IMG/VR virus record: IMGVR_UViG_3300042691_024284
Span: 759-64,758 of that record
Direction: 5' to 3' (one strand)
From: a virus
Taxonomy: Duplodnaviria > Caudoviricetes
Length of the DNA: 64,000 bases
Shown: positions 12,926 through 53,075 of the stretch, piece after piece
How the letters are laid out: every line of letters starts with the position of its first letter
Numbering within the stretch: position 1 is the stretch's first letter
Program-made: the position numbers and the translations under genes
The notes under the pieces: model-generated
What the model saw: the letters and a program-made list of their open reading frames with translations, nothing else
Database searches by the model: none
Told to the model about the DNA's origin: nothing

Positions 12926-14155
12926 TTAATATCCTTCTGTCCAATAAAGGAGTACGGCTCCGTCGCCGCCTTTGCCGCTATTTATTGATGCTGAACTATC
13001 ACTTCGTTGACCAGCACCGCCGCCACCGCCATTCCCACCGGGTCCCCCGAACGGTGTCGAGCTTGAAACTTGAGCGCCGCCACCGCCACCGCCAAAACCA
13101 CCCGGACCACCAAATGTTTGAGCGTTACTAGTATTAGCGCCGCCGCCACCACCACCAAAACCGCCTGGGCCTCCAAATGCAAAATTGCTGCTGCTTTGTG
13201 CCCCGCCTCCGCCGCCGCCAAAACCACCAGAACCGCCGTTAGAATCAAACGATGTGCTTGGTCCTCCGCCGCCACCACCTCCACACAATGCCCAATACGC
13301 AAGGTAAGGAGATGCAAGACTTAACCCTCCTTGCGTACTAGTTGCTACAGGGACGCTTTGACCGCCGCTAGTTCCCACAAAATTTGTTGTTACTCCGCCT
13401 CCTGGTCCACCACCATTTCGACCATTGCCATCGCTTGCTGATCCACCACCACCGCCCGCACTCGAAGCAGATCCATTTTTTAACCCGCCTCCACCTGAAC
13501 CGCTTGGCCCTTGAGGCCCAAAACCGCCGCTACCACCAAAACCACCCCCACCCGTTCCGTTTTGGCTAGTTGAAGTAGATCCTGCGGGTCCGCCATTTCC
13601 CCCATTACCATAAATAGACCCCGCTCCTCCGCCGCCAGTACCTCTGATATCTGAACCAGAGCTGCTTGAATACCCACCGTAACCGCCAGTAGCGGTATAG
13701 GCTTGCCGAAGCCCTCCAGATGCTGTGCCTGTACCGGGACTTCCGGGTGAAGTACTGTTAGTTATTGACCCACCGCCGCCGCCGGTAGAAGTTAAGAGAG
13801 TGCCAAATGATGATGTTCCGCCAGAAGCTCCAGAAGATTGAGTGCTAACTCGTGCTGCTCCTCCAGCGCCAACAGTAATTGTCGGCAACACCTGCCCTGG
13901 AACTACATCAATAATGCCTTGAGCGTAACCACCGCCATCACCCCCGCGAGCATATTGACCAGAATAACTACTACCAGCACCGCCAGATCCACCAGCACCC
14001 CAAACGCAAACCATAATTTGATACACGTTTGCTGGAACAACAAAGTCGTTATACGTACCCGCAATAACATACGGGCGGCAATTAGTCCAAGCAGCAGGCG
14101 CTACACGGGTTGCATAGTTAGGCGGCAACCCAAAGCCGTACATTCCCTTGTTCAT
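12926..14155 (-). CDS. Glycine-rich fibre protein
   Basis: VWGAGGSGG, ITVGAGG, repeated GGFGGGGGG, C-terminal GGDGAVLLYW. Confidence 0.7.
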   Translation of the reverse strand: MNKGMYGFGLPPNYATRVAPAAWTNCRPYVIAGTYNDFVVPANVYQIMVCVWGAGGSGGAGSSYSGQYARGGDGGGYAQGIIDVVPGQVLPTITVGAGGAARVSTQSSGASGGTSSFGTLLTSTGGGGGSITNSTSPGSPGTGTASGGLRQAYTATGGYGGYSSSSGSDIRGTGGGGAGSIYGNGGNGGPAGSTSTSQNGTGGGGFGGSGGFGPQGPSGSGGGGLKNGSASSAGGGGGSASDGNGRNGGGPGGGVTTNFVGTSGGQSVPVATSTQGGLSLASPYLAYWALCGGGGGGGPSTSFDSNGGSGGFGGGGGGAQSSSNFAFGGPGGFGGGGGGANTSNAQTFGGPGGFGGGGGGAQVSSSTPFGGPGGNGGGGGAGQRSDSSASINSGKGGDGAVLLYWTEGY

Positions 14156-32724: not shown

Positions 32725-34164
32725 CTACTGAGCGTACGGGTTGTAGCGTTGCTTGCTGCGATCATCTGCGTAGTCATAGTCGCGCGCTGGCAGCGGATCA
32801 AGCTGTATCCACCCCGAGTCACGCAGCACGCGCAGCGCTTGGGACAGGCTGTCCACGTAGTCATCGTGTCCCCCAGACTCGGGAAACGCACAGACCTGGC
32901 GCAGAAAACGTTTGGCCCACTCGGCGTACTCGCCGTCCTTTTTGGCATCCTCCGGTATGTACACCTTGCCCTTTGCTATGAGAGGCGCCACGATGTTGAT
33001 ACGCTGCACCTTGTCCGCTCTACCAGGGTTGTACGCCCTGACCGGCACGCCGGCACCTTGCAGCTCCTGGATGAGCGAGATACCAGCCGACTTATCCTCC
33101 ATCAGAATCAAGTCCGCCTTTCTGCCTTTGGCAAACGTGTTATCCGCGCCGTACACAACCTCTTTAAAGTCGTTGATTACCTTTTTGCGCAGCTCCGGAT
33201 ATGACAGGTGCGCGTCCCATGCGTCTAGCAAGATGATGCACGTGCCCTTGTCCTGGTTCTCAAACACGCCCCACACCTCACAGGCTGTCGGGTCGTTGTG
33301 TGTCTTCTCGCTGGTAGCCGGGTCGTATGACGCAATCACATACTCCAGCGTTGGCGTTTCCTTTTTGGACGGCCACATCTTAAACCACTTGCGCTTTACA
33401 ATCCCCGCGTCCTCCGGGTTTAGGATCTCGCCATAGATCTCCTGCTTACCCAGGTCTGTGCCTTCGTACGTCTCAAGCTGCTTGAAAAACGTCGCTGACA
33501 GGTTTTGACGGTTATCATAAGACGACGCGTTCACCATGTACACGTCGCCCCCGACCTTCCCTTCAGCCAGATCGACAATTAACTCCTTTGGCTTAGGCGT
33601 AGTGGTTATGATCTGCTGCACCCGGGCTATGTTTGGGTGCTTTAAGCGCAGGGTGAACTGCACTTGATCGTACGCATCGTCGATGTACTCGAATGCGCAC
33701 AGCTCATCAAACCAGGCCCCGTGAAACTGCTTGCCTCGATACCGCTCTGGCTCAGAGCCGGGTATGCCCTGGATGATAGAGCCGTTGATTAGCGTCACCT
33801 CAAAGAGCGATTTGTTGTAGTCCTGGATTAACGAGTGCGGGATGATGTTAAGCAATCCCGAGTCACCCTCAAAACACGTCGCCCGGATGTCATTTGACGT
33901 CGGCGCTGTCACTAACCACCTCGTTTGCGCGTTTTTCCACGCCCGAATCCCAATCCAGTGGCTTGCGGTGTGCGTTTTGCCTGATCCGCGGCCGGCAAGC
34001 ATCAAAAACGTGTCATATTCGCCGCCGTCCGGCTCTCTTTGGTGTCCCAAAGCGCTTAATTCCCATCTAACCTGCCACAAAGCCGCGTCTAGCTGCGGTT
34101 TTGGCCAGTGTTTGTTGTTCTTCGCAAAATCCGCCAGGATTTTTTCTTGCTTTTTGCTCAACAT
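32725..34164 (-). CDS. terL: Terminase large subunit
   Basis: Walker A AGRGSGKT, Walker B WFDE, TTTP coupling motif; nuclease motifs SYDPA, EDKSAG and HDDYVDS. Confidence 0.95.
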   Translation of the reverse strand: MLSKKQEKILADFAKNNKHWPKPQLDAALWQVRWELSALGHQREPDGGEYDTFLMLAGRGSGKTHTASHWIGIRAWKNAQTRWLVTAPTSNDIRATCFEGDSGLLNIIPHSLIQDYNKSLFEVTLINGSIIQGIPGSEPERYRGKQFHGAWFDELCAFEYIDDAYDQVQFTLRLKHPNIARVQQIITTTPKPKELIVDLAEGKVGGDVYMVNASSYDNRQNLSATFFKQLETYEGTDLGKQEIYGEILNPEDAGIVKRKWFKMWPSKKETPTLEYVIASYDPATSEKTHNDPTACEVWGVFENQDKGTCIILLDAWDAHLSYPELRKKVINDFKEVVYGADNTFAKGRKADLILMEDKSAGISLIQELQGAGVPVRAYNPGRADKVQRINIVAPLIAKGKVYIPEDAKKDGEYAEWAKRFLRQVCAFPESGGHDDYVDSLSQALRVLRDSGWIQLDPLPARDYDYADDRSKQRYNPYAQ

Positions 34165-35120
34165 ATTGAGATAAATCCCTCACTTGCCAGAAAAGGCCGG
34201 TCCGCAATGACATGAACGCACTGCTTAGGGTCGATTTTCTTGATTTTTCGTATGTATCTGCGCTTTAAGCGCCCGTTTTTGTCATCTAACCTGAACGCCA
34301 GCTTGTAGTTTGACGTATTCTCAGGCAAATACAGCATCGTCTTACACCCAAACGACTCAACCAGCGCCTGGTAGCGCCTGATTGTGGGGTAGTGCGCGTC
34401 GTAGATGCAGTATTTTTTGTACTCCTCGTCCCATCTGACGTACGAGTTGGCATCAATTAGCCCCTCGAGCAACTCCCTTCGCTGTTCCGGTGAGCTCTCG
34501 ATGTAACTAAACGGCAGCGTCGTTGGGATGTCGGCCCCAGCAAACAAAAACGTGTCCTTAATCGACGGCCGAAACTCAAACATCAGTTTGCGGTGTCTGG
34601 ATCTGCCCACCTTTATAAAAAACCCGTGCCGCCTGCAGCGCTTCCTAACCTTCTCCACATCCATCTTACCTACCAGGTTTAGGCCCGACGGTCGCAGTGA
34701 GCCTAACCACACACCCATCACGTAGGGCGGCACCGGCAGATCCTTCCATGTGTAACGCAGCGGCTCGCACACTTGTATGGACCAAGTCTTAGGCTCGCCC
34801 TTAACCAGCTCATCGACAGCCAGGATCTTTGGCTGCGATCTCAGCGGTTTGGAATACTTTTTGCCGCGGTTCTTCACCCACCTCGACAGATTGTCTCTAT
34901 ACGTCTTGTCTTGTAGCGGGAGCGTCATGTGCGCATCACCTACCAGGTCCAGCCCATCGTCGAACGCCACCTGATAGCACGCGCTCGGTATGTACTGCTG
35001 CACCGATCTCACCGGCTGGGCGCAGCCCTCTTGGTCAAAAACTAGATCACCAGGGCGTAGATCGATTGCCCGTCGCCAGCCATCAAGCGTTGGTATTGGC
35101 GTCGTTGCTGCTAGGCCCAT
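34158..35120 (-). CDS. Free-standing degenerate intein-like protein (Hint plus LAGLIDADG remnant)
   Basis: L..TTPIPT.DGW...DL.PGDLVF...G, LPVPPY.MG.WLG, S.EQRRELLEGLID and block F-like C-terminus; lacks the terminal His-Asn. Confidence 0.75.
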   Translation of the reverse strand: MGLAATTPIPTLDGWRRAIDLRPGDLVFDQEGCAQPVRSVQQYIPSACYQVAFDDGLDLVGDAHMTLPLQDKTYRDNLSRWVKNRGKKYSKPLRSQPKILAVDELVKGEPKTWSIQVCEPLRYTWKDLPVPPYVMGVWLGSLRPSGLNLVGKMDVEKVRKRCRRHGFFIKVGRSRHRKLMFEFRPSIKDTFLFAGADIPTTLPFSYIESSPEQRRELLEGLIDANSYVRWDEEYKKYCIYDAHYPTIRRYQALVESFGCKTMLYLPENTSNYKLAFRLDDKNGRLKRRYIRKIKKIDPKQCVHVIADRPFLASEGFISIC

Positions 35121-35307
35121 GCCTTTTTGTCTTCTTTCTTTTCCGGTCGTTTAACAGCGCGCGCTGGGATGCGCCAGGGGACAACCAAATTTCCTTAAAG
35201 TATCCATCGAGCTTGCGCTTATTGGTGTACGCAAAAAAGATATAACCGTCCTTGCGCAGATCTCCTCTGTGGAAGTGCACGTTTGTTTCTGGGTTAAGTC
35301 GCTTCAT
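35083..35307 (-). CDS. Small basic hypothetical protein
   Basis: RBS GGAGG and promoter motif upstream; first gene of the late operon. Confidence 0.65.
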   Translation of the reverse strand: MKRLNPETNVHFHRGDLRKDGYIFFAYTNKRKLDGYFKEIWLSPGASQRALLNDRKRKKTKRHGPSSNDANTNA

Positions 35308-35352: not shown

Positions 35353-35573
35353 GCTGTCAAGGGTTGCGGGGGTTGCTGGGGTCTAAACCAGGTCCGTCTC
35401 TCTTTTTGTTTTTTCTTTTTTCTAAAAAAAAATAAAAGTGAAATAGACCCCAGCAACCCCCGCAACCCTTGACAGCAGAAAAATTTTATCAACAAAATCA
35501 ACAACTTACAAAAACGCGGTATAGAGAAAAATGACCCTTATACCCTTGACACGACCCCGGCAACCCTTGACAA
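35353..35573. repeat. Origin-like element, copy L: perfect 33-bp inverted repeat around a 58-bp AT-rich spacer, IHF site and third iteron block
   Basis: Arms at 35353-35385 and 35444-35476; WATCAANNNNTTR at 35496-35508; block at 35542-35573; inverted homolog at 43201-43419. Confidence 0.9.
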
Positions 35574-35593
35574 CTTGTACGCACAAGCAAAAG

Positions 35594-35624
35594 TTATCCA
35601 AAGTTATCCACAGAGTTATCCACA
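35594..35624 (+). promoter_or_regulatory. Three tandem DnaA boxes
   Basis: TTATCCAAA 35594, TTATCCACA 35604, TTATCCACA 35616. Confidence 0.8.
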
Positions 35625-35775
35625 GGTTGCCTATTTTTGCGATTGTCTCTATACCTGTCTCTATACCTAAAAAAATATAAAAAATTGCAAAAACTGGCGG
35701 TTTGGGGTGGGGCCACCGCCGCCCTCCCCGACAGGACCCGTTCAGGTGTATCGTCCCTATTTTCGACCCCGGCCC

Positions 35776-35970
35776 TGCTGCAGCGCACCAATTTGCTGCA
35801 TTGCACCACCCCCAGTTAGCGCTCACTAACTTTGTGCAGTGCAACATGTTAGTGAGTACTAACTAACCTACGTGCTGCAGTGCAGCACCCCCAGTTAGCG
35901 CTCACTAACATACATGCTGCATTGCACCACCCCCAGTGAGCGCTCACTAACCTAATTGCCGCGCTGCAAT
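35776..35970. promoter_or_regulatory. PhaR-like TGC-N3-GCA sites (5 clear, 1 degenerate)
   Basis: Sites at 35776, 35794, 35832, 35873, 35915 and (35957); fit TGCRNYGCASMA. Confidence 0.6.
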
Positions 35971-36121
35971 ATGTGAGTGAGCACTCACTGACATATAGGC
36001 AAGACCCCTAGCAAGAATCATGCCAGCTTGGGCAGGCACGCATATTGCCCTAGCAAGAATCATGCCAGCTTGGGCATGCAAGAATCGTGCCAGATTGCCG
36101 GCTAAGTGAGTGAGTACTCGC
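35815..36121. promoter_or_regulatory. Six SlmA-binding-site-like palindromes
   Basis: GTTAGCGCTCAC 35815, GTGAGTACTAAC 35852, GTTAGCGCTCAC 35894, GTGAGCGCTCAC 35936, GTGAGCACTCAC 35977, GTGAGTACTCGC 36110; consensus GTGAGTACTCAC. Confidence 0.75.
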
Positions 36122-36164
36122 GTGCGCGAGCTAGAGATCTGGGCATAAAGCAAAAAACGTGCCC
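36011..36164. promoter_or_regulatory. Five sigma54 (-24/-12) elements
   Basis: Minus strand: TGGCATGATTCTTGC (36011, 36053), TGGCACGATTCTTGC (36078), GGGCACGTTTTTTGC (36150). Plus strand: AGGCACGCATATTGC (36034). Confidence 0.75.
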
Positions 36165-36193
36165 GCGCTCCGGATCCGGCAGGCATAAAAAGT

Positions 36194-36243: not shown

Positions 36244-36990
36244 ATGCTAAAAAAACCTAAGACCCTGCTATCAGTCGACACGAATGCCAAGACCGTTAAA
36301 GGCCAAACACTGGGTTTTCTCACTGGCATTTTATATCTGGCGCCGTCGGACCAATCGGGCCATCAGATCTGTCCCATGGCCAAGCTTGCACAATGCGAGG
36401 CACCATGCCTCTACACTGCCGGCCGTGGCGCCATGTCATCAGTGCAGCGCGCACGCCTAAATCGTACAGCGCTCTTTTTTAATGAGCGCGAATGGTTTAT
36501 GCAACAGCTAGTGCAGGACGTCGCCTCGTTAGTCCGTAAGGCAGCGCGGCGAGGCATGACCCCGTTAGTCCGCCTCAATGGCACGTCCGATATTCGCTGG
36601 GAAAATATTCGCATGGCCGACGGCCGAACCATTTTCGAGATCTTCCCGGACGTGCAGTTTTACGATTACACGAAGCTTGCCAATCGTCGCGACGTCCCTG
36701 CCAATTACGATCTGACGTTTTCTTACTCCGGCGCTGCAGGGTTTCGCGATTATGCGCGGCGTGCAATTGATGCAGGCATGCGCGTCGCCGTCGTTTTCCG
36801 CACGCGTGAGTCTATCCCGGAGACATTCGAGGGCATGCAGTGCATTGGCGGAGACGATAGCGACGTGCGTCATCTTGAACCCCGTGGCGTCGTCGTCGCG
36901 CTGTACGCTAAAGGTCCTGCACGCCGTGACGTGTCGGGTTTCGTGATCGACAGCGCGCCGCGCGTGATCCCGATCAAGCTTGCAGCGTAA
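36244..36990 (+). CDS. Gp88-like protein (radical-SAM-like Cys motif)
   Basis: CP.A....C...CL..AGRG, RLNGTSDI.WE, VQFYDYTK and NY.LTFS motifs; RBS AGGAGA before 36244. Confidence 0.75.
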   Translation: MLKKPKTLLSVDTNAKTVKGQTLGFLTGILYLAPSDQSGHQICPMAKLAQCEAPCLYTAGRGAMSSVQRARLNRTALFFNEREWFMQQLVQDVASLVRKAARRGMTPLVRLNGTSDIRWENIRMADGRTIFEIFPDVQFYDYTKLANRRDVPANYDLTFSYSGAAGFRDYARRAIDAGMRVAVVFRTRESIPETFEGMQCIGGDDSDVRHLEPRGVVVALYAKGPARRDVSGFVIDSAPRVIPIKLAA

Positions 36991-42242: not shown

Positions 42243-42830
42243 ATGGAGCGTACAGATTTGAAAAGAGATAAGACCGCGCTGTCTGACTATATCCGGGTGC
42301 TTTACAGGCACACGGTGCTGCCAGTACAGGAAGAAGAGCGGCTATCGAAGATGATACAGGCCGGAGACAACGCCGCATTGGAAAAGCTAGTGCGGCACAA
42401 TCTCCGGTTTGTCGTTTCGGTGGTCAAAGAAATGCCAATCTGGCAAAACGGCTCGGTGCCGTTCGAGGACATCGTTGCTATCGGTAACGAGTCGCTGCTG
42501 AAAGCAGCCCGCAAGTGGGTGCCAAAAAATGGGGCTCGGTTTGCCACGTACGCCAAGCCATTCATTATCAAGGGAATCAGGAGGGCTCTTGATAATGAGT
42601 GGTCAATGATCCGCGTGCCGGTGAACATCCTCGAAGAGATCCGCCGCATGAAGTATCTCGAGCGGGTTTTGTCGCAAGAGTTAAAACGGGACCCGACAGC
42701 CAGGGAGATTGCAGACCGGATGAAAGTGCACGAAAGCAGGATCACGGAGCTGCAAAATCTCCTGACCCTGGAGCCGGTGTCGCTTGAGGCCTACAACCAA
42801 GAGAAATTCCACGAGGAGAGCGAAGAATGA
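42243..42830 (+). CDS. Sigma70-family factor with regions 1.2, 2 and 3 but no region 4
   Basis: EE..L...IQAGD.AA..KLV.HNLRFVVSV, G.RFATYA...I, IRVP and R.PT..EIA; ends shortly after PVSLE. Confidence 0.88.
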   Translation: MERTDLKRDKTALSDYIRVLYRHTVLPVQEEERLSKMIQAGDNAALEKLVRHNLRFVVSVVKEMPIWQNGSVPFEDIVAIGNESLLKAARKWVPKNGARFATYAKPFIIKGIRRALDNEWSMIRVPVNILEEIRRMKYLERVLSQELKRDPTAREIADRMKVHESRITELQNLLTLEPVSLEAYNQEKFHEESEE

Positions 42831-51140: not shown

Positions 51141-51221
51141 GGGGTTGGAATAGTTTCGACGTGGGCCAAGGCCTAAGCGGCAACCTTGCGGACCTGGGTG
51201 CGATTCCCAGCAACTCCACCA
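51141..51221 (+). ncRNA. Minimal tmRNA-like RNA (tRNA-like domain only)
   Basis: GGGGTTG/CAACTCC-ACCA with G3.U70; TTTCGAC loop; GAC linker; T-arm CTGGG-TGCGATT-CCCAG. Confidence 0.8.
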
Positions 51222-51260
51222 ATACGAAAATGTCTGTACTTATTAAAAAGGTCCTACAAA

Positions 51261-51449
51261 ATGGAAGACTTTAAATGCCTACCCAAGATGGCAACCGGCG
51301 GCTCAGCCAAGCCGGGGCTGTATGCCAACATCCACGCCAAGCGCGAGCGAATCGAGCGCGGCTCTGGTGAGAAAATGCGCAAGCCCGGGTCCGAGGGCGC
51401 GCCTACAGCTAAGGCATTCAGGGAGTCAGCCAAGACGGCCAAAAAATAA
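51261..51449 (+). CDS. Small basic virion-type protein
   Basis: MEDFK..KMATGG..PGLYANIHAKRERI..GSGEKMRKPG. Confidence 0.7.
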   Translation: MEDFKCLPKMATGGSAKPGLYANIHAKRERIERGSGEKMRKPGSEGAPTAKAFRESAKTAKK

Positions 51450-51451
51450 AT

Positions 51452-51841
51452 ATGGCGAAATCGAAGCACGAATTTAAACCCGAGATGTGCGACACGCTCA
51501 TCGAGATGGGTAAATCCGGAGCATCACAAAAGATGATGTGGTCCGCGCTCGGCATCTCGGCCGGCGTGGCCGACACATGGAAAAAGAAGTACCCCGAGTT
51601 TGCTGATTCACTTGGTGTGGCGCTGGTCCACAGTCAAGCCTACTGGGAACGCGAAATGTTGGCCAACGTTGGCAACAAGGCGTTTAACTCGCGCATCGCA
51701 GAGATTGCCCTGCGTGGCCAGTTCCCGCAGGACTACAAAGAGACACGAGATCAAAAGCTAGAAGTCAAAGCAGATGTGGTAGTTGACTTTTCTGGTGCTG
51801 TCAATGACCTGATCAAAAGCCTGAAAGCAGCAAAAGAATAG
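51452..51841 (+). CDS. Putative terminase small subunit
   Basis: F.PEMC...I..G..G.S, HTH, W...YPEF..S and AYWE pattern. Confidence 0.65.
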   Translation: MAKSKHEFKPEMCDTLIEMGKSGASQKMMWSALGISAGVADTWKKKYPEFADSLGVALVHSQAYWEREMLANVGNKAFNSRIAEIALRGQFPQDYKETRDQKLEVKADVVVDFSGAVNDLIKSLKAAKE

Positions 51842-51941: not shown

Positions 51942-53075
51942 TTGACTGCGCACGCTATTCTTTCGGCATCTGCCTCCAAACGTTGGCTTACATGCCAACC
52001 CTCGGCCCGACTCGAGGCCAGCCTACCAGAACCCCCACGCCGATCCGGCGACTTCGACTACAGCCAAGAGGGTACAATGGCCCACACCCTGGCTGAGATA
52101 AAACTTCGTCATCAATTTGGACAGATTGGAATTGAAGAATATGAGCGCGAATACGAAATCATCAAAAACACGCCGTACTACGACGAAGAGTTCGAGCGCT
52201 ACGTCGACGACTACGTCCTCTACGTTCGTAGTCAGATTGGCGAAGGCGATACACCATTCTTTGAGCAGCGTGTGGATTTTTCTGACTTCGTACCTGACGG
52301 ATTTGGTACTGCGGATGTCATTATTATTTCCAAGCACGCAATCCGAGTCATCGATCTCAAGTTCGGAAAAGGCATCTTCGTCGAAGCCAAAGACAACCCG
52401 CAGCTCCGCCTCTACGCGCTCGGTGCGTACTGCAAGTTCAAAGACGAGTACCCGGACCTCAAAGAAGTCCACTACACAATCCACCAGCCGCGGGTAGAGA
52501 ACATCTCCACCGACGGAACAACCGTCACCAAACTGCTGGACTGGGCGCAGTACTTCGTAAAACCAAAAGCCAAGCGCGCGTGGGCCGGCACCGGCGAGTT
52601 CATCCCTGGAGATCACTGCCAGTTTTGCCGCGCCAAGAGCACTTGCCGGGCACGCAGCGACTTTGTCAATGAAGTGGCCAAGCTCGAGTTTAGAGAGCCG
52701 GCGCTGCTGACTGACGAGGAGCTCGAGCTGGTGTTCTCGCGAGCAGCCGATCTGAAGTCTTGGGTTAGCGACGTCGAGGGTTACTTTACCGAGCGCGCAA
52801 TCAGGGACAACCTAATGCCCGCCGGATATAAGTTAGTGAGTACTCGCACACATCGTAAGATTTCTGACCCGCCTCTTGCGGCTCAGGTGTTGCTGGAGAA
52901 TAATTTCAAAGAGGATGACATCTGGGAGCCAAGGACTTTGAGATCGATTGCACAGCTCGAGAAACTGTCTAAAAAGGGCCATGTTGCCTCTCTGCTGGGT
53001 GGGTTGATAGTCAGGCCAGAGGGAAACCAAAAGCTCGTCAAGGACGAGAATTCAGCCACAGAGGACTTCAAATGA
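51942..53075 (+). CDS. DUF2800 PD-(D/E)XK (Cas4-like) nuclease
   Basis: HA.LSAS...RW..C, EGT.AH, FGTAD, IDLK.G.G, NPQL.LYALG and HCQFC motifs; TTG start after AGGAG. Confidence 0.9.
   Translation: MTAHAILSASASKRWLTCQPSARLEASLPEPPRRSGDFDYSQEGTMAHTLAEIKLRHQFGQIGIEEYEREYEIIKNTPYYDEEFERYVDDYVLYVRSQIGEGDTPFFEQRVDFSDFVPDGFGTADVIIISKHAIRVIDLKFGKGIFVEAKDNPQLRLYALGAYCKFKDEYPDLKEVHYTIHQPRVENISTDGTTVTKLLDWAQYFVKPKAKRAWAGTGEFIPGDHCQFCRAKSTCRARSDFVNEVAKLEFREPALLTDEELELVFSRAADLKSWVSDVEGYFTERAIRDNLMPAGYKLVSTRTHRKISDPPLAAQVLLENNFKEDDIWEPRTLRSIAQLEKLSKKGHVASLLGGLIVRPEGNQKLVKDENSATEDFK

Follow-up and report, generated by a model that had tools for sequence, protein, structure and literature searches.

Six palindromes clustered at 35815-36121 of the phage genome analysed here belong, as judged by published binding rules, to the class of SlmA-binding sequences (SBS) across their full 20 bp, beyond the 12-bp core. 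The best single explanation of this array, one that we consider about evenly balanced between right and wrong, is that it would recruit a SlmA-type protein of the host. The window, that is the whole 64,000-nt stretch of DNA analysed, comprises bases 759-64758 of a 64,758-bp IMG/VR record that carries terminal repeats and is rated complete. Ten studies contributed metagenomes in which the phage occurs, among them freshwater and wastewater samples.

The whole 64-kb window was scanned for near-matches to GTGAGTACTCAC with up to three mismatches. The 14 near-matches found in total are not above chance, with 16.4 +/- 4.4 expected and 14 or more obtained in 70 of 100 shuffles. Seven of them, however, fall within the 307 bases 35815-36121 (35815, three mismatches; 35852, one; 35894, three; 35936, two; 35973, three; 35977, one; 36110, one). 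The match at 35973 is the site at 35977 read four bases out of register, and the cluster therefore consists of six independent sites. In 200 first-order Markov simulations the densest 307 bases held one match in 69 runs, two in 123 and three in 8. The clustered array of six palindromes is thereby confirmed: the sequence-only reading, which had noted six sites close to the 12-mer, is borne out, with one to three mismatches per site (no perfect match to GTGAGTACTCAC among the six) and a density beyond the simulated maximum. The sites have a pitch of 37-42 bp and alternate with a second, 15-bp palindrome. They are listed below together with a seventh site located elsewhere in the window.

35811-35830 (core 35815-35826), unstranded: site 1, CCCA GTTAGCGCTCAC TAAC, a unit of the 42-44-nt repeat D1
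35848-35867 (core 35852-35863), unstranded: site 2, GTTA GTGAGTACTAAC TAAC, the full 20-bp form
35890-35909 (core 35894-35905), unstranded: site 3, CCCA GTTAGCGCTCAC TAAC
35932-35951 (core 35936-35947), unstranded: site 4, CCCA GTGAGCGCTCAC TAAC, with a core fully obeying the SlmA rule
35973-35992 (core 35977-35988), unstranded: site 5, GTGA GTGAGCACTCAC TGAC
36106-36125 (core 36110-36121), unstranded: site 6, GTGA GTGAGTACTCGC GTGC, with C at position 2 of one half-site
52832-52847, unstranded: seventh site, with an extended flank, GTTA GTGAGTACTCGC, within the gene for DUF2800

The extended flanks that had been pointed out for several sites are also present, with TAAC following sites 1-4, GTTA preceding site 2 and GTGA/TGAC surrounding site 5. 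Segments 35449-36146 and 35807-36181 are each covered with zero differences by contigs of two runs from two studies, one of which may come from the source sample itself; this difference-free coverage indicates that the array sequence is not an assembly artefact. Two raw-read runs contained zero reads on the array stretch, and contigs cannot show the genome ends. Contigs of two runs join 35962 to 36073, omitting the 110 bases 35963-36072 (site 5 and one 42-bp repeat); with only 20 letters on its shorter side, this junction is a weak hint of a length variant.

The SBS is a 20-bp site occupied by a dimer of dimers (Cabre 2015, PMC4423959), and its 12-bp rule requires G, T, A and G at positions 1, 2, 4 and 5, a purine at position 3 and a pyrimidine at position 6 (Tonthat 2011, PMC3020112). 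The oligonucleotides from Cho 2011 that are given in PMC4423959 include the E. coli consensus AAGTAAGTGAGCGCTCACTTACGT, in which GTAAGTGAGCGCTCACTTAC is contained, SBS17 (GTTAGTGACC...), which begins with GTTAGTGA, and SBS12 (...GCTAACTCAC), with one GTTAGC half. The window array consists of 12-bp palindromes of this kind, with 8 of the 12 half-sites obeying the positional rule fully. Three half-sites deviate by a T at position 3, a base also found there in one half of SBS12, a natural site of E. coli, and the exception at position 2 is confined to site 6. The 20-bp extent with GTWA/TWAC flanks is likewise present, the left flank of sites 1, 3 and 4 being CCCA instead.

The same agreement is seen in 175 distinct 20-mers from phage arrays, which were picked by the core alone, leaving the flanks free of selection bias. 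Their outer flank has G at a frequency of.67, T at.61, A/T at.41/.42 (W.83) and A at.87, while in the core position 3 is G in.73 and A in.22, and position 6 is C or T. The full consensus is therefore GTWAGTRAGY|RCTYACTWAC, identical over all 20 bp to that of the E. coli SlmA sites, both in the flanks and in the positions where variation is tolerated. The likeness to strong natural SlmA sites suggested earlier thus extends over 20 bp, both by the published rules and by comparison with the oligonucleotides. In two related loci, the GTGTGC half occurs in 3 of 5 sites (L005) and in 5 of 6 sites (L007); it has T at position 4, where published data demand A, and from its sequence SlmA should bind it poorly.

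The array sits between a leftward arm of terminase and late genes and a rightward arm of early genes. The leftward genes start at 35307 and the rightward genes at 36244, and the 0.94-kb gap between them is the sole large non-coding region. The leftward arm comprises the 74-aa ORF, the large terminase (two ORFs), portal and structural genes; the rightward arm encodes GP88, an ArdC-like protein, a sigma factor, a primase-helicase, VRR-NUC, an SNF2 helicase, DUF2800, an Enc34-type SSB, a class II RNR and PolA. From left to right, the gap first contains a 33-nt inverted repeat, three presumed DnaA-box 9-mers and two copies of TGTCTCTATACC, and then an AT tract that precedes a GC-rich element. The array occupies the right part, followed by 2.5 copies of a 42-bp repeat and by the last site just before the first early gene.

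32725-35120, minus strand: large terminase in two ORFs, the upstream ORF with a LAGLIDADG domain
35083-35307, minus strand: basic protein of 74 aa, encoded by the gene that opens the leftward arm; candidate DNA binder, on one backbone only
35353-35476, unstranded: perfect 33-nt inverted repeat with GGGTTGC-type iterons and a 58-nt AT-rich spacer; same design in locus L011
35594-35624, plus strand: three tandem presumed DnaA-box 9-mers, TTATCCAAA (35594), TTATCCACA (35604) and TTATCCACA (35616)
35644-35760, unstranded: two copies of TGTCTCTATACC, AT tract (35667-35690), GC-rich element (about 35690-35760)
35776-35968, unstranded: interleaved 15-bp palindromes of TGCTGCAnTGCAnCA type at 35776, 35794, 35832, 35873 and 35915, and a weaker one at about 35954
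36006-36100, plus strand: 2.5 copies of the 42-bp repeat, core GCAAGAATCRTGCCAG
36244-36990, plus strand: GP88-family protein, first gene of the rightward arm

In keeping with a DnaA-type origin, the box cluster at 35594-35624 lies beside the AT-rich tract at 35667-35690. The cumulative GC skew reaches its minimum at 38-40 kb, an ambiguous signal because it coincides with the strand switch of the genes. The array forms part of an origin-like cassette adjoining the terminase genes. No sigma-70 promoter was found by a promoter scan inside the array. Structured RNAs of Rfam were also considered for the region, and the only matches were sub-threshold hairpins of miRNA type caused by the inverted repeats.

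Several other features of the two arms were recorded. The 42-bp repeat is also present upstream of GP88 in relatives that have no SlmA-type sites. Repeats of GCAAGAAYCRTGCCA, which contain GAATC (window 36006-36100 and loci L001, L005, L009 and L011), are likewise found upstream of GP88 with or without the array and probably belong to the early-gene module. The two terminase ORFs overlap, and the LAGLIDADG domain occupies residues 212-289 of the upstream one; it may be an intein or a homing-endonuclease insertion. In Caulobacter phage RW the terminase annotation is similarly split, and a methyltransferase gene separates the two pieces. The phage sigma factor (42243-42830, plus strand; 195 aa) has detectable regions 2 and 3 and no match to region 4. 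A 92-nt tRNA-Ser with the unusual anticodon ACT was called by ARAGORN in the structural arm (13634-13725, minus strand) and may be a false call.

A blastn search with the 1.3-kb region against 50,697 cultured phage records returned zero matches. Among 80 related loci fetched by GP88 similarity, 13 have two to six sites located 300-800 bp upstream of GP88, 11 have one and 56 have none. When IMG/VR was searched by pattern for pairs of strict 12-mers separated by 10-40 bp, at least 119 stretches matched, against a rough chance expectation of a handful. The 80 pattern-scan loci listed have GC contents of 37-64%; GP88 is encoded in 11 of these 80, the window-type terminase in 13 and the 74-aa gene in 6. 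About 28 of the same 80 belong to a second packaging module, where the array is followed by the GC-rich element, the AT tract, a 153-aa protein and an unrelated 507-aa terminase. To judge from gene content, the arrays occur on several unrelated phage backbones.

The surroundings of the arrays are partly conserved. In 49 of 81 loci the array has an AT tract no more than 150 bp away, compared with 11% of random positions, and in 15 of 81 a perfect DnaA box lies within 600 bp. The second palindrome varies by lineage (TGTTGCAnTGCAACA in one, GCACCAnnnTGGTGC in another), while the SlmA-type site is constant. An interleaved palindrome of another kind, GCACCA-N3-TGGTGC, presumably resembling the NtrC enhancer site, was seen in L061 (3380-3620), L042 (3420-3620) and L103 (2740-2940). 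On unrelated backbones, the GC-rich element of about 60-70 nt invariably separates the AT tract from the array (window 35690-35760; L142, 6352-6420; L152, 5720-5790; L389, 875-940; L326, 375-440). It might represent a structured RNA, a hairpin of the origin or a cos-like site.

In the related phages L001, L103 and L359, the same slot of the cassette is filled by other repeats. Those of L359 (2930-3030; MW202483) and L001 (3540-3690) are TGTTTACAT-type palindromes in one and TTGACATATCTCA and tctcaccctggtgaga palindromes in the other, and a slot with such differing contents looks like a set of exchangeable specificity modules. No SlmA-type sites are present near the terminase of the cultured or named relatives of the second group (DSL-LC05, Ralstonia phage DU_RP_II and MW202483) or in the stretches examined of Caulobacter phage RW, MW202545, Limnohabitans phage DC31 and MW202701. 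The record of SSU5, representing the SSU5-type phage-plasmids, contains 3 sites with up to two mismatches to the 12-mer, compared with 1 for the control, by a crude pattern count. The replication arm of the window also encodes a small basic peptide (PGLYANIHAKRERI...GSGEKMRKPGS...; 51186-51449, plus strand), whose C-terminal 45 residues are 67-89% identical in 24 of the 80 listed array contigs; in those 24 its gene is placed between those for terminase and portal, at a distance of about 2.4 kb from the array.

A protein of the phage itself was sought as a reader of the palindromes. The whole record of the window contains no candidate for the TetR_N or SlmA families, TetR_N matched none of five other complete array-bearing genomes, and no HTH family of Pfam was detected among the 45 right-arm ORFs. 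An HTH profile built from four SlmA/TetR N-termini, which recovered six of six positive controls, matched none of 13,979 ORFs from 173 phage loci and the window. A palindrome in the promoter of an adjacent TetR gene, the arrangement of TetR auto-operators, is absent from the window record. A TetR-type binder of phage origin is therefore nowhere in evidence in the loci searched. The complete array-bearing genomes have in common only SNF2, VRR-NUC, DUF2800, PolA, the small peptide and structural pieces, and no sequence-specific DNA binder common to all six was found.

Since the phage encodes no TetR-type reader, the array most likely recruits a conserved TetR-family protein of the host. The six palindromes are predicted to be docking sites for a TetR-family HTH whose recognition helix is SEAALYRHF and which binds as a dimer of dimers, and a conserved host protein of this family would be loaded onto the phage array, with SlmA as the best candidate. 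The outcome could be activation of SlmA against FtsZ on many replicating phage copies, a roadblock or regulator between the two gene arms, or a part in the architecture of the origin or of packaging. With the array placed in an origin-like cassette beside the terminase genes, where relatives carry other repeats, a function in replication, packaging or transcription is no less probable than a block to division.

The distribution of SlmA among candidate hosts bears on this proposal. The nearest cultured relatives of the portal are those of Caulobacter phages (51%), and 5 of 10 portal relatives among GTDB contigs, including the best (69%), lie in metagenome-assembled genomes (MAGs) titled betaproteobacterial or Burkholderiales, a host link that rests on phage contigs binned into MAGs and is weak evidence. 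SlmA scores above the curated cut-off in four of these five MAGs and in 88 of 121 sampled genomes of that order (one positive, G033, being unpublished). The MAG SlmA is 47% identical to E. coli SlmA and its recognition helix, VSEAALYRHF, is identical to that of E. coli and V. cholerae SlmA; in five of five such MAGs the sequence EAALYxHF is encoded at exactly one locus, inside slmA. The FtsZ-site residues F65 and N102 are kept, L94M, G97A, R101K and L105M are mild changes, and R73, needed for FtsZ antagonism in E. coli, is replaced by L.

Among five MAGs that hold array-bearing contigs, SlmA is present in two, both betaproteobacterial, and absent from a Chloroflexota MAG and two others. In the best MAG (G001), the phage contig itself is free of such sites. 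A SlmA with the E. coli/Vibrio helix is thus carried by the freshwater betaproteobacterial lineage that most often holds relatives of the phage, and is lacking in three of the five MAGs with array contigs. Counts of chromosomal sites do not discriminate: the strict 12-mer occurs 0-2 times per MAG chromosome and 5 times in E. coli K-12, a test without power, and the count with two mismatches in E. coli is 80 against 72 in the control, so that with no excess even there it is uninformative for the MAGs.

It is possible, though on balance unlikely, that a phage-encoded protein reads the palindromes; the array would then act in cis for the phage itself, in its replication origin, at its packaging site or in its early/late switch. 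The location of the array beside the terminase, where DnaA boxes, an AT tract and iterons share its cassette in two unrelated packaging modules, would suit such a role, and the presence of other repeats in the same slot of relatives is what is expected if site and reader were swapped together. The GTGTGC half-sites of L005 and L007 are likewise unfit for SlmA. The candidates for a reader are the 74-aa basic protein, a small-terminase-like protein (51452-51841) and an unrecognised small protein. Among the GP88 loci, all 13 with an array carry the 74-aa gene and none of the 56 without an array does; its product is modelled confidently by AF2 (pLDDT 85) as beta strands and a helix with a basic tail. 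Against this, it belongs to no Pfam family, has no relative in GTDB contigs and no significant fold match in the PDB, its association with the array may reflect the shared ancestry of one backbone, and it is found in few of the listed array loci. The small-terminase-like ORF was rejected as a reader shared by both groups, being unlike the 153-aa protein of the second group. The lack of a common specific binder in complete array-bearing genomes, although the 20-bp site is constant over GC contents from 37% to 64%, and the lack of a TetR-type HTH in any phage locus searched also argue against a phage reader.

Within the recruitment of SlmA, one plausible though rather improbable sub-case is the division block originally proposed: replicating phage genomes would offer hundreds of SlmA sites throughout the cell, activate SlmA against FtsZ and stop septation with no inhibitor protein of the phage. 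The precedent invoked for it is real, since a multicopy pUC plasmid with two tandem SBSs causes a lethal division block in E. coli that requires functional SlmA (Cho and Bernhardt 2013, PMC3573117). An E. coli cell contains 300-400 SlmA copies and 24-52 chromosomal sites (PMC4423959); six sites on about 100 genome copies would be comparable to the plasmid case and would exceed both. Conservation of F65 and N102 and the mildness of the other FtsZ-site changes are consistent with such activity. The substitution of R73 in the SlmA of the candidate host is not, and in the plasmid work SlmA was overproduced about 4-fold (PMC3573117). No sequence feature of the window bears on septation, the literature covered gave no account of SlmA function outside gamma-proteobacteria, and a mere sink would not need a fixed place in an origin-like cassette.

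In the last alternative, the array is bound by a different host protein, be it another TetR regulator or an unrelated factor, which the phage would use to regulate its control region; a different TetR-type binder had been named as a counter-case in the sequence-only reading. Paired 12-mers in bacterial genomes are mostly actinobacterial, with CGGA/TCCG flanks, and the 45 stretches in bacterial genomes with paired 12-mers and a TAAC flank are again mostly actinobacterial; Actinobacteria are not known to have SlmA. In two loci (L273 and L385), pairs of the same 16-20-bp site lie in the divergent promoter of an ordinary TetR gene other than slmA. One of these TetR genes is from Nocardia and encodes the helix SEAALYKHF, which ties the site to a helix type; the other, in L385, adjoins an efflux gene on a GC-rich MAG contig labelled Enterobacteriaceae, a doubtful label at a GC content of 66%. 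With TetR genes other than slmA beside the same site, the motif alone names the helix type and not SlmA, and arrays are also found on contigs binned with genomes that have no SlmA. Ordinary TetR regulators are, however, strain-specific and of low copy number, a reader spanning phages of such a wide GC range must be highly conserved, and slmA is the sole gene with the EAALYxHF helix in all five candidate-host MAGs, and we consider this alternative improbable.

Two actinobacterial patterns were noted alongside. Palindrome pairs of the form ACGGA-GTGAGYRCTCAC-TCCGT, 22-27 bp apart, occur in Streptomyces and related genera (L250, L247, L270 and about 40 other actinobacterial loci) and presumably represent the operator pair of a conserved regulator. 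The chromosome of Paractinoplanes lichenicola (L253, 3519-4250; L278, 2625-2830; L304) contains intergenic arrays of five to eight GTGAGTRCTCAC-TTAC sites that adjoin a 17-bp tandem repeat, lepA and the gene of a PucR-type regulator. The Paractinoplanes arrays in L253 and L278 were considered as phage arrays and rejected, since they sit between ordinary genes such as lepA in surroundings that are not phage-like.

Phages are known to stop host division by small proteins, and T7 Gp0.4 is one phage protein inhibitor of FtsZ. It is conceivable, but rather doubtful, that many uncultured phages of beta- and gamma-proteobacteria capture and activate the host nucleoid-occlusion protein through their replicating DNA, stopping division or placing the phage DNA relative to FtsZ and the membrane with no inhibitor of their own. 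Host takeover would then be written in non-coding DNA, and the borrowing of a host protein by such DNA to act on nucleoid occlusion or division would be a new kind of host manipulation, one that would escape gene-based annotation. Beyond the enterobacteria SlmA has received little study, and the arrays would be a natural record of its specificity there; they might also mark the host range of uncultured phages. A full-text literature search found no paper on phage-borne SBS arrays.

Of the known systems, ordinary TetR auto-operators, as in Nocardia and L385, have the same site as the phage, including the TAAC flank, arranged in pairs and read by a helix SEAALYKHF or SQAALFKRF. They adjoin their own TetR gene, whereas the phage has no TetR gene and carries six sites at a 37-42-bp pitch with a second palindrome interleaved. 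Origin iterons and the lambda cosB-type clusters of terminase and host-factor sites resemble the phage array in being clustered non-coding repeats beside the terminase, with host-factor sites (here DnaA boxes) and an AT tract. Unlike in those clusters, the repeats of the phage array are 20-bp palindromes of TetR-operator type, and the phages that share them differ in their terminases and have no initiator in common.

The chromosomal SBSs of E. coli and its relatives share with the phage array the 20-bp palindrome, the G, T, A, G positions, the tolerated bases at positions 3 and 6 and the flanks. They are scattered over the chromosome of an enterobacterial cell, at the numbers given in PMC4423959, whereas the phage has six within 310 bp in a genome without slmA, its probable host is not an enterobacterium and its sites are predicted SlmA sites only. 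The pUC plasmid with two SBSs is closest in arrangement, being a high-copy replicon with tandem SBSs on which plasmid-bound SlmA blocks Z rings cell-wide (PMC3573117); that construct is man-made and was used with mild SlmA overproduction, while the phage array is natural, larger and located in an origin-like region. Should the array indeed block division, it would serve the same presumed goal as phage inhibitors of FtsZ such as lambda Kil (PMC3961180). Kil, however, is a protein, whereas the agent of the phage array would be DNA that exploits a protein of the host.
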